From: Escherichia phage vB_EcoM_PHB13
Direction: 5' to 3' (one strand)
DNA length: 64,000 nt
Sequence record: MK573636
Below the pieces are notes generated by a model. That model had not been told where the DNA came from, ran no database searches, and worked only from the letters and a program-made list of their open reading frames with translations. Shown piece by piece: positions 10,630 through 59,054 of this stretch; the stretch's first letter is position 1; each line of letters begins with the position of its first letter. A program made the position numbers and the translations under genes.

Positions 10630-10808
10630 AATTATTTGCGTGGCTAATTATTTTAAATGTAATTGTTAAGACCTTTCTCGCTGGTCTGATGATGGCGCAT
10701 AGCACCGAACCAGAAGAAGCATTAACGTATTTTGTTGCTTATGTGTTGGGATTCTTGCTTACTGCGTGGATGTGTGATGAATATCGAAGAATTGAGGTAA
10801 AACCATGA
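10614..10808 (+). CDS. small membrane protein
   Basis: 64 aa hydrophobic ORF overlapping its neighbours. Confidence 0.4.
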   Translation: MGQTMKLFAWLIILNVIVKTFLAGLMMAHSTEPEEALTYFVAYVLGFLLTAWMCDEYRRIEVKP

Positions 10809-11023
10809 AGATGACTTTTTATATCTTAGCAAGTATCATGCTTGTGATCTCTTCTGCACTATTTGCATTTCTTACCGTTTGGGGGATCTGCACTGATGCG
10901 AAGCCGTGGGATATCATAGAAAATACGGTTATGTTCCTGATCAGTGTCATGTGTCTTTTTGATGCATTTAACTCTATCAAGGAAGAAGATCAAAAACGTC
11001 GCGAGAGAAAGCGATATAAATAA
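10805..11023 (+). CDS. small membrane protein
   Basis: 72 aa with two TM segments and a basic C-terminus. Confidence 0.4.
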   Translation: MKMTFYILASIMLVISSALFAFLTVWGICTDAKPWDIIENTVMFLISVMCLFDAFNSIKEEDQKRRERKRYK

Positions 11024-11029
11024 TAGTGA

Positions 11030-11199
11030 ACTAAAGACAGCGCGGTTAGAATGATTTGGACGTCACCTAGCCGCATTTATTGCAGCGTATGGGGTGATCC
11101 GGTACGCTAAAGCATTCACTTGCTAGGCCGCTAGCAGGTTGGAGACAAGGAAGATTCGCTACCTTCCCCTATAAGCCACTCTTCGGAGTGGCTTTTTTA
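11030..11199 (+). ncRNA. candidate structured small RNA
   Basis: About 170 bp without ORF; TATAAATA late-promoter-like motif at 11015-11022 upstream; four consecutive predicted hairpins then an intrinsic terminator. Syntenic with the T4 tRNA/stable-RNA region, but no tRNA T-loop consensus. Confidence 0.3.
11174..11199 (+). terminator. intrinsic terminator
   Basis: AAGCCACTCTTCGGAGTGGCTT hairpin followed by TTTTTT. Confidence 0.65.
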
Positions 11200-11226
11200 T
11201 TGCCTAAATTTTTTTGAAAAAAGTGG

Positions 11227-11255
11227 TTGACACCAGACCCAGCCTATAGCATAAT
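11227..11255 (+). promoter_or_regulatory. sigma70-type early promoter cassette
   Basis: TTGACA-N17-CATAAT followed by ACACCCATCGAAACGAAACAC...GGAGAATCAAATT-ATG. Confidence 0.6.
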
Positions 11256-11301
11256 ACACCCATCGAAACGAAACACACTTTCTTAAACGGAGAATCAAAT
11301 T

Positions 11302-11487
11302 ATGGCACGTCGCATCACTAAAGCACTGAAAGCAGTAAGCAAAGAAAACGTAGTAGCTATTCTGGTAATCTGGGGTTATAACGAAGAATCCGCTAAACAG
11401 AAAGTTGAAGCAGGGTTTGAACTGGCAGTAAAAGCAATGCCGAATGATGACTCTGTAGGGCTGGCAAACTATATTGCATATTTCTGA
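11302..11487 (+). CDS. hypothetical early protein
   Basis: 61 aa behind a promoter cassette. Confidence 0.45.
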   Translation: MARRITKALKAVSKENVVAILVIWGYNEESAKQKVEAGFELAVKAMPNDDSVGLANYIAYF

Positions 11488-11495
11488 TAAAAGTG

Positions 11496-11524
11496 TTGAC
11501 AGGGGAGGATAACTCCCCTACAAT
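11496..11524 (+). promoter_or_regulatory. sigma70-type early promoter cassette with spacer palindrome
   Basis: TTGACA, then AGGGGAG-GATAA-CTCCCCT inverted repeat filling the spacer, then TACAAT. Confidence 0.55.
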
Positions 11525-11553
11525 ACAACCATCAACGAAACGGGAGAATCAAA

Positions 11554-11781
11554 ATGATTAACTTTAAAGACGCAGCAAAAGAAATTATCGACTTTGAGCG
11601 TGAACTGTTTGAGATGGAACCGCAGATGGGTAAAATGGAACTGGCTAACCAGATCTGGGCTACTAGACTGAATCCGGCTGATCGCTTAGAGATCATGAAC
11701 ATTGTAGGCGCAAGCGACATGAAAGGTGGTGCTATGGCTAAACTCCGCAAATGCACCGCATACATTGCTGATCAACTGTAA
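11554..11781 (+). CDS. hypothetical early protein
   Basis: 75 aa behind a promoter cassette. Confidence 0.45.
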   Translation: MINFKDAAKEIIDFERELFEMEPQMGKMELANQIWATRLNPADRLEIMNIVGASDMKGGAMAKLRKCTAYIADQL

Positions 11782-21176: not shown

Positions 21177-21184
21177 TATAAATA
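21177..21184 (+). promoter_or_regulatory. T4-type late promoter motif TATAAATA upstream of the rI-like gene
   Basis: Exact TATAAATA about 34 bp upstream of the ATG at 21218. Confidence 0.45.
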
Positions 21185-21217: not shown

Positions 21218-21520
21218 ATGTCATTTATTCGTAAAACTCTAACAGCGGCAATATGCTTGACTGCGGTCGGAAGTGTCAGTGCTGATCAATATGATCCAAC
21301 TGGTGACTTTACTGATTATTTCGACGGCGCAATGATAGTATATGTAAACAAAATATCTCCTTCCATTGAAACCAGCCAGAAATTTCATGCCCATATTATG
21401 AAGATGTATGCTCGTAGTAAATGTATGGATTCTAGGCAGTGTTTTATTATGGGGGGATATGCCGCACAACAATTTGTTCTGTTGCATAATATGGAGAATC
21501 GAGAACATGAAATTCAGTGA
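21218..21520 (+). CDS. rI: lysis inhibition regulator RI-like periplasmic protein (antiholin)
   Basis: 100 aa with N-terminal signal-anchor sequence and a two-Cys C-terminal domain; directly after tk, as rI is in T4 (97 aa). Confidence 0.5.
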   Translation: MSFIRKTLTAAICLTAVGSVSADQYDPTGDFTDYFDGAMIVYVNKISPSIETSQKFHAHIMKMYARSKCMDSRQCFIMGGYAAQQFVLLHNMENREHEIQ

Positions 21521-21905: not shown

Positions 21906-22139
21906 TGTTAGTCACCGTGGGATGCATACCATAAGTAAAAGAATACTAGCATTAACACAACTATTTGGCTTCCTCATAATTTCGCGTGTTCAATTACTGC
22001 CGAATCGGAAGACCCGTCTAAGACGAGGAAGGGTTATCATTGGAAAGGGATGGTGAATTGGTTACTATGTTTAACTAGTTTAGCAAAGGTCGATTCAAAC
22101 ACTACTATACAAATGGACGTGAATAAAATATAATCAAAA

Positions 22140-22164
22140 GCCATCCGAAAGGGTGGCTTTTTTG
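22140..22164 (+). terminator. intrinsic terminator
   Basis: GCCATCCGAAAGGGTGGC hairpin plus TTTTTT. Confidence 0.65.
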
Positions 22165-22174
22165 TTTTTAGGTG

Positions 22175-22203
22175 TTGACAACCGGAATAGTGTATAGCAT
22201 AAT
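22175..22203 (+). promoter_or_regulatory. sigma70-type early promoter cassette
   Basis: TTGACA-N17-CATAAT followed by GCACACATCGACAACAAAGGAGAATCAAAA-ATG. Confidence 0.6.
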
Positions 22204-22233
22204 GCACACATCGACAACAAAGGAGAATCAAAA

Positions 22234-23764: not shown

Positions 23765-24544
23765 ATGGCAATATCTTCTGGATGGGTAGGATCATCTGCT
23801 GTGTCCGAGACTGGTCAACGGTGGATGAGTGCCGCAATGGAAGCTGTACGCTTAGGTCGTCCGGCGTATATGTCAGCAATGGTCGGACGTTCTAAAGAGA
23901 TTCATTATAGCATTGGTGCTAGTAACTCTTACAATAAAGATACGCTTATTAACTGGATGAAAGCACAAGGATCTACTCCGGTAGTAATTACTATCACAGG
24001 TAATATTGTTTCCCAATCTACTGGCGTTCCTTGTCTTGACTTCCCTAGCTCGTTAACAAACGAATATGTAACATTGATCATTAACTCCGGTGTTCATGTT
24101 TGGGGGCGTGGTGGTAATGGTGGCAATAACTCCGCTGGTGGTGCTGGTGGTAATGCAATTAACAACGGTATAGGCACACGCTTACGCATCACAAATAACG
24201 GTGTTATCGCAGGCGGTGGCGGTGGCGGTGGTGGCGGATATTATTCTCCTACGAAACCAATGAAATTAACCTTTGGTGGTGGCGGCGGTCGTCCATTTGG
24301 TGCTGCTGGTGGGTCTGCTAATATGGAACGGGGTGCTACTGCTGGTACTATTTCCGCGCCAGGTAAAGGGTCTGTCAACGGTGTATATAATGGCGGTAAC
24401 GGTGGTGATGCTGGCGGTGCTGGTGGTAAATGTAATATCCGTGGACAGGGATCGGAATATAATGGCGGTGCGGCTGGTAAGGCTGTTACTGGCAATGCCC
24501 CTCGCTGGGATAAAGTAGGCACGATCTACGGTGCTCGCGTGTAA
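23765..24544 (+). CDS. glycine-rich protein with gp38-adhesin-like polyglycine motifs
   Basis: 259 aa; about 110 aa N-terminal domain, then GGNGGNN, GGAGG, a run of nine Gly, GGGGG and GGNGGDAGGAGG segments resembling the glycine-rich motifs of T2-type gp38 adhesins and colicin translocation domains. Confidence 0.5.
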   Translation: MAISSGWVGSSAVSETGQRWMSAAMEAVRLGRPAYMSAMVGRSKEIHYSIGASNSYNKDTLINWMKAQGSTPVVITITGNIVSQSTGVPCLDFPSSLTNEYVTLIINSGVHVWGRGGNGGNNSAGGAGGNAINNGIGTRLRITNNGVIAGGGGGGGGGYYSPTKPMKLTFGGGGGRPFGAAGGSANMERGATAGTISAPGKGSVNGVYNGGNGGDAGGAGGKCNIRGQGSEYNGGAAGKAVTGNAPRWDKVGTIYGARV

Positions 24545-24550
24545 TTTTAT

Positions 24551-24587
24551 GGGCTATCCTTCGGGATAGCCTTTTTGTTTTTTGGGT
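24551..24587 (+). terminator. intrinsic terminator
   Basis: GGGCTATCCTTCGGGATAGCC hairpin plus T-tract. Confidence 0.65.
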
Positions 24588-58359: not shown

Positions 58360-58734
58360 ATGAAAAATATGATTACGCCGGAAGATGTAGCATTTAAAAC
58401 CGCAAATAACGGAGACATTCTTATTTTTATCGACGGTAAACATGCTGGTATGGTTGAACCGGAAGGACGCTGGGGAGTCGCCGAACTTTATGATGTGGCT
58501 GGTGTAGATCCGAAAACTGCAATTGTTTTTCTGGCGGATAAAGATCAAATGCGTCGAAAAATTGCTGCGCTCTATAATGAAGCATTGTATTTCTACGAAC
58601 CGTTTCATCGTATTAAAACGATCTCCCGCGTGACTCGAAAAGATGTTAATGCTTGTGTTATCAAGATTGTAGAGAATCAGGATAAACTGACGAAAGACCA
58701 GATTGTTGACTTACTGAAAGAGATTATTCTATGA
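58360..58734 (+). CDS. hypothetical protein
   Basis: 124 aa from AGGAGACTATATT-ATG. Confidence 0.4.
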   Translation: MKNMITPEDVAFKTANNGDILIFIDGKHAGMVEPEGRWGVAELYDVAGVDPKTAIVFLADKDQMRRKIAALYNEALYFYEPFHRIKTISRVTRKDVNACVIKIVENQDKLTKDQIVDLLKEIIL

Positions 58735-59054
58735 TTGGCTTTAAACAGTTTGTTGAAGAAAATAAACTCAAAGAAGATATGACCGCTGGCGATGCTGGCG
58801 GCAATCCTGAGAAGATCGCAGCAGGTGAAACGAGCGGATCTATTACCAATCGTGGACCTAGTGTAGCGGGTAAAGAAAAACGCAAAAAGGAGAAAGACGG
58901 TGCTTAGTATCATCATGTTTATCGTTGGCTTGCTGTCCGCTATTATCGGTGTTGTTGTTTTCGGATTATCTGGACACAAAACAAAAACAGAAAAGTTATC
59001 CGAGATCACAATGTATGTTGGTGTAGTTCTCATTCTGTTGTCGGTGGCGCTTAA

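Follow-up and report, generated by a model that had tools for sequence, protein, structure and literature searches.

Some bacterial small RNAs, DapZ and MicL among them, are embedded in the 3′ untranslated region (3′UTR) of an mRNA whose terminator they share, and they have a promoter of their own, located within the upstream open reading frame (ORF) or at its end. Virulent T4-type phages have been studied as thoroughly as almost any virus, and yet their known non-coding RNAs, tRNAs aside, are very few. The T4 stable RNAs C and D (rnaC and rnaD; species 1 and 2 RNA) are small, stable, non-coding RNAs of unknown function that are encoded a few kb downstream of gene 57B and immediately adjoin tRNA genes; rnaC ends in the tRNA-like T-arm sequence GGTTCGAATCC. 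RB49/phi1-type phages carry PeSL cassettes, in which a strong stem-loop terminator is succeeded by AT-rich DNA and then by a sigma70 promoter close to the consensus, and these cassettes lie in hyperplastic regions, are repeated in the genome, and coincide with breaks in metagenome assemblies (Arbiol et al. 2010, PMC2839356; Comeau et al. 2014, PMC4122927). PeSL stem-loops terminate as efficiently as rrnB T1 in vivo (Arbiol et al. 2010, PMC2839356). Here, we analyzed a stretch of 64,000 nucleotides (nt) from Escherichia phage vB_EcoM_PHB13 (sequence record MK573636), hereafter the window, in which a reading of the sequence alone (the sequence-only reading) had singled out the DNA downstream of the stop codon at 11023, between the genes referred to here as ORF118 and ORF117, as a candidate small RNA.

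Our working hypothesis, to which we give about an even chance of being correct, is that RB49-like phages (Krischvirus) have a small RNA of their own, discrete and highly structured, which is about 172-175 nt long and is encoded on the + strand at ~11028-11201. The finding itself is real and beyond chance: a candidate small RNA, restricted to the genus, of a general kind already known, namely a structured phage RNA bounded by a promoter and a terminator. Its terminator and the early promoter that follows are already known as PeSL; new is the unannotated, single-copy body of 150 nt in front of them. If the hypothesis is true, a regulatory or counter-defence RNA would be added to a genus that is in wide use in phage therapy collections.

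A structured body in front of a PeSL terminator

The 521 bases around the element match 58 phage records at 95-99% identity, and because all of these are Krischvirus (RB49, phi1, JSE, GEC-3S, ECD7, and others) and most match on their minus strand, the + strand of the window is the early-gene direction of an RB49-like T4-type coliphage. The local gene order in RB49 and GEC-3S is 1, 57A, 57B, two small ORFs, dmd, five small ORFs ending with ORF118c, a gap, and ORF117c; on the gene maps of these two phages, ORF118c corresponds to window positions 10805-11023 and ORF117c to 11302-11487. The claim that the region is free of ORFs holds, as stops are present in all six frames of the element and the next real ORF after the ORF118 stop codon (TAA, 11021-11023) begins at 11302, leaving 278 nt (11024-11301) that comprise the ~150-nt body, the terminator, and the early promoter. 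This gap ranks fourth among the intergenic intervals of the RB49 annotation, as read from the feature tables, and it is one of two + strand stretches downstream of ~7.2 kb that extend for at least 150 nt without an ORF of at least 45 amino acids (aa), the other being 21906-22233. The GEC-3S record annotates the terminator and the early promoter inside the gap, while the 150 bases between the ORF118 stop codon and the terminator are undescribed in the phage records and literature examined; RB49-like phages carry no RNA genes in their annotation.

The + strand RNA of 11024-11205 folds with -66.1 kcal/mol compared to -51.0 ± 3.9 kcal/mol for 200 dinucleotide shuffles, none of which was as stable (z = -3.92), and the - strand RNA of the element has a less stable fold (-58.9 kcal/mol, z = -3.1). 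Within the 64 kb, the 150-nt segment at 11051 has the second-lowest folding energy of all segments (-52.8 kcal/mol, mean -31.3, standard deviation 6.3), and 11037-11186 is the third-highest peak of G+C (52% as compared to 40.2% overall). Hairpins 1-3 contain five G-U pairs, two of them in hairpin 1, where they become A-C mismatches if read on the other strand. These pairs and the G-U intermediates among relatives keep pairing in the + strand RNA only. Together with the more stable + strand fold and the orientation of the terminator, they assign the element to the + strand.

The four consecutive hairpins proposed by the sequence-only reading are all present in the minimum-free-energy fold (Table 1), with their named stems at 11042-11048/11068-11074 (GCGGTTA/TAGCCGC, including one G-U pair), 11084-11089/11103-11108 (AGCGTA/TACGCT), 11121-11126/11131-11136 (TGCTAG/CTAGCA), and 11149-11153/11163-11167 (GGAAG/CTTCC), and with linkers of 5-9 nt between the hairpins. 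The linker AUUUAUUGC between hairpins 1 and 2 is a possible RNase E site. Hairpin 1 is identical across 18 sequences except for one loop change. In the single-sequence fold, hairpin 2 is closed by three further pairs, 11081-11083 with 11112-11114; we rejected this extension, which the substitutions observed at 11082 and 11112 contradict. RNAalifold agrees on hairpins 1-3 and the terminator, and because it pairs the hairpin-4 loop region with 11024-11032 in place of hairpin 4, we regard the latter as the least secure of the predicted hairpins. We note that on the 3′ flank of hairpin 4 the window carries a private 1-nt insertion at 11166, with CCCC where all 17 other compared sequences have CCC.

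Table 1 Features at the candidate small RNA locus, in window coordinates
Feature	Position	Strand	Basis or remark
Last ORF of the dmd-containing early operon; 72 aa, hydrophobic; homologue of RB49 ORF118c	10805-11023	+	ORF list, RB49/GEC-3S annotation
Exact T4-type late-promoter motif TATAAATA, positions -13 to -6	11015-11022	+	Predicted start near G11028
Predicted single-stranded 5′ leader of the late transcript, GAACUAAAGACAGC	11028-11041	+	Relatives have G, A, or no base at 11036
Hairpin 1; 8 bp + 4 bp, loop UUGGAC	11042-11074	+	Minimum-free-energy fold
AU-rich single-stranded linker, AUUUAUUGC	11075-11083	+	Relatives have G, A, or U at 11082
Hairpin 2; 7-bp lower stem, hypervariable apical part 11091-11099	11084-11108	+	
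Hairpin 3; 8 bp + 4-bp extension, loop GCCG	11115-11143	+	
Hairpin 4; GGAAG/CUUCC, 9-nt loop AUUCGCUAC	11149-11167	+	Minimum-free-energy fold
Intrinsic terminator; 9-bp stem (-14.3 kcal/mol), cUUCGg loop, U6AUU tail	11173-11201	+	Terminator scan, one site
Strong sigma70-type early promoter; TTGACA, 17 nt, CATAAT	11227-11255	+	Drives ORF 11302-11487; outside the RNA body

The strong intrinsic terminator that had been placed at 11174-11199 was recovered by the terminator scan, which reports a stem at 11173-11194 followed by TTTTATTGCC and predicts function on the + strand only; the U tail UUUUUUAUU makes it a rho-independent terminator with at least six U. In RB49, a TransTerm terminator at 58720-58737 (confidence 100) and the early promoter Pe:58699 (score 43.6) have been described (Nolan et al. 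2006, PMC1524935). The terminator and early promoter of the window (11173-11255) are a known PeSL cassette and match the described cassettes in the order of their parts, in their location in the hyperplastic region, in their repetition in the genome, and in the breaks in metagenome assemblies. The structured body (11024-11172) differs from them in that it is single-copy and lies outside the repeated unit: a 521-nt query that includes the cassette matches two to four places per record, whereas the 150-nt body alone matches one place per record. This body interval is not discussed by Arbiol et al. (2010, PMC2839356).

Two minor observations concern the cassette. Several metagenome contigs end ~170-250 nt after ORF118, at or just past the PeSL terminator/promoter, as would be seen if a repeated cassette interrupts assembly. 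Between the -35 and -10 hexamers of the early promoter, both of which are invariant, the spacer at 11234-11243 is a hotspot of variation among relatives, and we used it as an internal neutral yardstick.

Sequence constraint, coding potential, and late-promoter motif

For comparison, we assembled 13 isolate sequences and nine metagenomic or IMG/VR contigs, the contigs being found by means of upstream protein or DNA anchors, and variability was tested on 17 full-length sequences. Outside the hairpin-2 loop, 9 of 135 sites in the body are variable (6.7%; nucleotide diversity π = 0.012), and the body is thus conserved in related phages. Variable sites are significantly more frequent at the third codon positions of ORF117 (14/61, 23%; π = 0.048; Fisher p = 0.003 compared to the body) and ORF118 (37/69, 54%; π = 0.13; p = 1e-13) and in the PeSL promoter region (18/63, 29%; p = 8e-5). 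The diversity of the body is ~four-fold below that of synonymous sites in ORF117, the most conserved neighboring gene, and we conclude that the body is under purifying selection relative to the synonymous sites of both flanking genes. The hairpin-2 apical loop, in which six of nine sites vary (π = 0.23), is hypervariable, and this speaks against explaining the low diversity in the rest of the body by a recent sweep.

The substitutions that did accumulate in stems are mostly of a kind that keeps pairing. The pair 11085/11107 is G-C in 14 sequences, G-U in one, and A-U in two; the pairs 11084/11108 and 11151/11165 change from A-U to G-U; and in the lower extension of hairpin 3 one pair is broken in one relative. 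All 11 distinct hairpin-2 haplotypes fold into the same hairpin, with -10 to -16 kcal/mol. Loops and linkers, except for the hairpin-2 apical loop, are as conserved as the stems.

These data also bear on coding potential. The only ORFs that overlap the region are mechanical ones of 28-36 aa, and some genome records call short hypothetical proteins here; an encoded very small protein, e.g., from the 19-codon ATG ORF at 11051 (+) or the 28-aa ORF at 11076-10990 (-), would account for both. Relatives carry 1-nt indels at 11036, 11091-11095, and 11166, those at the first two sites shifting the candidate frames, and a conserved reading frame is therefore ruled out. Moreover, the annotated proteins vary from record to record and extend across the terminator or the promoter, and by inspection the ATG at 11051 has no Shine-Dalgarno sequence upstream. 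Because of the frame-shifting indels and the stops in all frames, we rejected the small ORFs as candidates and consider a protein at this site scarcely credible; the element is non-coding.

The exact TATAAATA reported at the 5′ edge of the structured body is present at that position and is formed by the final codons of ORF118, TAT AAA TAA. The same arrangement, with the stop codon of the upstream gene within the motif, is found at the gene 21/22 junction in RB49. Following the -13/-6 rule for the T4-type late promoter motif (PMC1524935), the predicted RNA would extend from ~11028 to the U tract and measure about 172-175 nt. Within the window, TATAAATA is not enriched (three copies as compared to 6.2 expected), and the significance of the copy lies in the distribution of the motif across the RB49 genome rather than in this count. 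The RB49 genome (164 kb, both strands) contains 14 exact copies as compared to ~20 expected from composition, and 12 of them are followed after 21-43 nt by the start codon of a late gene, namely rI, 53, 9, 18, 22, 23, 24, uvsW, 51, the gene 31 homologue, 34, and the next tail-fiber gene. The remaining two are a copy with a 365-nt leader after the gene 23 terminator and the present site; none of the 14 is at a random position inside a gene, and the present site is the sole exact RB49 copy at which a terminator precedes any ORF. Because TATAAATA is almost purged from RB49 except at acting sites, the copy in front of the body is very likely a working late promoter. The near confinement of the exact motif to real late promoters also offers a simple route to further non-coding late transcripts.

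Two other copies deserve mention in their own right. In the window, the only other + strand TATAAATA (21177-21184) lies right after tk and 33 nt upstream of the rI homologue (ORF 21218-21520), and it corresponds to the published RB49 late promoter Pl:48756. In RB49, the copy just after the gene 23 terminator opens an ORF-free leader of 365 nt (94996-95368) that is followed by the 50-aa ORF RB49p162, and this leader, another long non-coding segment of a late transcript, might hold an RNA element.

A proposed discrete small RNA and its rivals

We propose the following sequence of events. Early in infection, the element would be transcribed as the 3′ end of the operon that contains dmd and five genes for small membrane proteins; late in infection, a gp55-type late promoter, TATAAATA, which overlaps the stop codon of the last ORF, would drive its separate transcription; and both transcripts would end at the strong intrinsic terminator. 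The late RNA would consist of a short single-stranded 5′ leader, the four hairpins, and the terminator hairpin with its U tail. We infer that a discrete transcript accumulates with ends close to those predicted and that it acts in trans on a partner. Specifically, the RNA may act as a specifically recognized folded particle, either as a protein-binding/decoy RNA or as a ProQ/Hfq-type regulator, and we favor such a trans-acting RNA over a generic stabilizer because loops and linkers are as conserved as stems.

In its layout, the element resembles the DapZ/MicL class in that the promoter motif overlaps the end of the upstream ORF, the operon terminator with its U tail is shared, and the RNA could come from its own promoter or by processing of the longer mRNA. 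It differs in that the promoter is of the phage gp55-type late class rather than a host sigma promoter, and in that the element is longer and far more structured than typical seed-type small RNAs and has no known target or chaperone.

Several observations weigh against a discrete small RNA. First, we found no RNA-seq, Northern, or 5′-end data for the element in the literature. Second, the site is absent from the list of 17 RB49 late promoters identified using a hidden Markov model (Nolan 2006, Additional file 5, PMC1524935), which includes the rI promoter (window 21177). Third, the contig MAVA01000028.1 has a 14-nt deletion of GATATAAATAATAG that removes TATAAATA and leaves the body intact. 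Fourth, the complementarity of the element to the rest of the window and to the RB49 genome reaches 10-12 nt at best, which is the level of shuffled controls. Fifth, covariation is weak: 41 of 45 pairs are invariant, in a single pair both bases have changed, and the observed score is reached by 12 of 500 shuffles. Sixth, stems do not have significantly fewer variable columns than the other positions (p = 0.13), and the constraint could therefore act on the sequence rather than on the RNA structure. Finally, in a divergent lineage with ~75% identity in ORF118 and ~94% in the spacer, the mosaic block of low divergence spans about 10995-11560 and includes ORF117.

As to the MAVA01000028.1 variant, we note that the deletion, which corresponds to window positions 11010-11027, removes the stop codons of ORF118 and that, together with a 2-nt insertion in the A run of this gene, the ORF ends differently and comprises 70 aa.

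The claim of a candidate small RNA is thus upheld in part. Purifying selection, the wobble and compensatory changes in stems on the + strand, and the specificity of TATAAATA in RB49 speak for it, while the terminator belongs to the repeated PeSL, one variant lacks TATAAATA, and the site is missing from the published list. Similarly, the alignment for compensatory changes that the sequence-only reading had put forward as a check yielded the G-C/G-U/A-U series at 11085/11107 within an otherwise mostly invariant set of pairs; what the data support is strong sequence constraint with structure-consistent substitutions and not proven covariation.

Because the low-divergence block runs through ORF117, the contrast between spacer and ORF118 in the divergent lineage could by itself be due to mosaic recombination. 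We therefore dropped the argument for spacer-specific conservation from this single divergent contig and retested the body against the synonymous sites of ORF117. This matters for the explanation that the constraint acts on DNA, i.e., on a protein-binding, recombination, or replication site, or that the body is a non-functional leftover of PeSL shuffling that was recently spread by recombination. Such an explanation would fit a body inside the low-divergence block of a hyperplastic mosaic region, in which identity to the divergent lineage swings between 67% and 100%, and it would also fit stems that are not significantly less variable than other positions. It does not fit the four-fold difference in diversity between the body and the synonymous sites of ORF117 within the same block, nor a hairpin-2 loop that diversified into many haplotypes while the rest stayed fixed. 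The stem changes, moreover, are of the G-U wobble type and keep pairing only in + strand RNA; G+C and fold stability are outliers as expected of a structural RNA in an AT-rich genome; and the body has no repeats or paralogues. We consider this explanation unlikely and the weaker of the two main rivals to a small RNA.

The serious rival is a role in cis only, without a separate small RNA, and we judge it to be possible, with a minor but real chance of being right. The body would then be either a structured 3′UTR of the early dmd-ORF118 mRNA, which for example blocks 3′ exonucleases, sets RNase E entry, or docks a host small RNA, or an attenuating leader that limits late transcription from TATAAATA into ORF117 and beyond. 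The body sits directly behind the last ORF of the operon and ahead of the terminator, and the MAVA01000028.1 variant keeps it without the promoter motif; a precedent exists in T2, in which an operon transcript is stabilized by the host small RNA ArcZ (bioRxiv 10.64898/2026.06.19.733364). A generic 3′ stabilizer, however, requires hairpins alone, while here loops and linkers are as invariant as stems, and most other PeSL terminators of the genome lack a comparable structured body: the covariance-model match at 24446-24580 is at the level of the terminator, and the 21906-22233 spacer is unstructured (z = -1.4). For the attenuator version, long untranslated late leaders do exist in RB49, e.g., the 365 nt before RB49p162, but we found no convincing antiterminator alternative to the terminator, the best competing pairing being located within the strong hairpin 3.

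Returning to a trans-acting small RNA, we also considered a more specific version, in which a late-expressed decoy or inhibitor RNA binds a host RNA-binding protein or an RNA-targeting defence nuclease and is the RNA counterpart to the antitoxin Dmd of the same operon. In this version, which is a long shot, the hypervariable apical loop of hairpin 2 would be the contact surface in an arms race, and T4-type phages would thereby gain their first described RNA-based factor for counter-defence or host takeover. The element is readily testable, because it is a single-copy unit of 150 nt whose ends are defined and for which nature offers at least 11 hairpin-2 variants and one promoter deletion.

Searches for relatives and neighboring features

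The sequence-only reading had likened the locus to the site at which T4 carries its tRNA and stable RNA C/D genes. The likeness in rough position downstream of 57B stands: the T4 order is 57B, ipI, tRNAs, rnaD, rnaC, while here 57B is followed after ~1.9 kb by the element. RB49 lacks tRNA genes (PMC1524935), as does the window according to ARAGORN, which found neither tRNA nor tmRNA, so that there is no tRNA cluster beside the element. This synteny would be compatible with a degenerate relative of the T4 tRNA cluster or of RNAs C/D kept at the corresponding place. At the level of sequence, blastn-short of T4 rnaC, rnaD, and the T4 tRNA region against the element gave chance matches of 7-9 nt only, and at the level of profiles, a covariance model of the element built from 18 sequences had no match in the T4 locus. 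The element also differs from rnaC in lacking the T-arm sequence and from both RNAs in being bounded by its own promoter motif and terminator rather than adjoining tRNA genes. Kinship with the T4 RNAs is thereby largely refuted, and we consider it very improbable. In agreement with the earlier observation that the region has no tRNA T-loop consensus, Rfam searches at E ≤ 10 returned no match from the tRNA clan.

Rfam 15 gave no match in the whole window at gathering thresholds, so that no known RNA was identified, and at E ≤ 10 it gave only sub-threshold, terminator-driven matches. The best of these was RNAI (RF00106), with 23.4 bits and E = 0.03 as compared to a gathering threshold of 47. The element shares with RNAI and other multi-hairpin antisense/ProQ-type RNAs a series of stem-loops that ends in a terminator; it differs in that the score is far under threshold, the alignment rests on generic hairpins and the terminator, and the element has neither plasmid similarity nor an antisense partner. 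For a RegB/S1 site (single-stranded GGAGRAYARAA), the closest candidate was GGAGACAAGGA (11143-11153), whose GGAG is in the linker between hairpins 3 and 4; it fits 7 of 11 positions, is a poor match, and carries C at position 6 of the consensus, which has been reported to be extremely rare (PMC1702504).

The distribution of the body is correspondingly narrow. It is present at 100% coverage in all 58 matching phage records and in the nine metagenomic or IMG/VR contigs, and it has no paralogue within the window or the whole RB49 genome. Similar DNA was not found outside Krischvirus in the phage collection at blastn sensitivity, nor did blastn match the body in E. coli genomes (none of ~20 nt or more) or in plasmids. 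Two 21-nt anchors had no exact match in 185,579 GTDB species genomes, and scans of IMG/VR and JGI metagenomes returned Krischvirus-like contigs only. The protein encoded by ORF118 is similarly restricted, forming just six clusters at 90% identity, all of them Krischvirus-like.

Elsewhere in the window, the second long ORF-free spacer (21906-22233, +; ~240 nt) lies behind the rI.-1 homologue, and a further terminator and early promoter of the PeSL type come after it; the spacer has no significant structure (z = -1.36). A glycine-rich ORF of 259 aa (23765-24544, +), which is a gp38-like adhesin in RB49, contains the highest G+C peak of the window and ends in a PeSL-type terminator. The covariance-model match at 24446-24580 covers only this similar terminator after the gp38-like ORF, and we rejected it as a paralogue of the element.

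Downstream of the cassette, the ORF117 homologue (11302-11487, 61 aa, Pfam DUF7421) has homologues with 75-80% identity in ~50-kb Drexlerviridae-like (T1-like) siphoviruses of E. coli and Shigella. These loci share a similar -10/5′UTR segment and do not share the structured body, suggesting that the ORF117 promoter-gene module moved horizontally between unrelated phage families. Because the ORF117 loci in siphoviruses lack it, the body goes with the upstream operon or stands alone.

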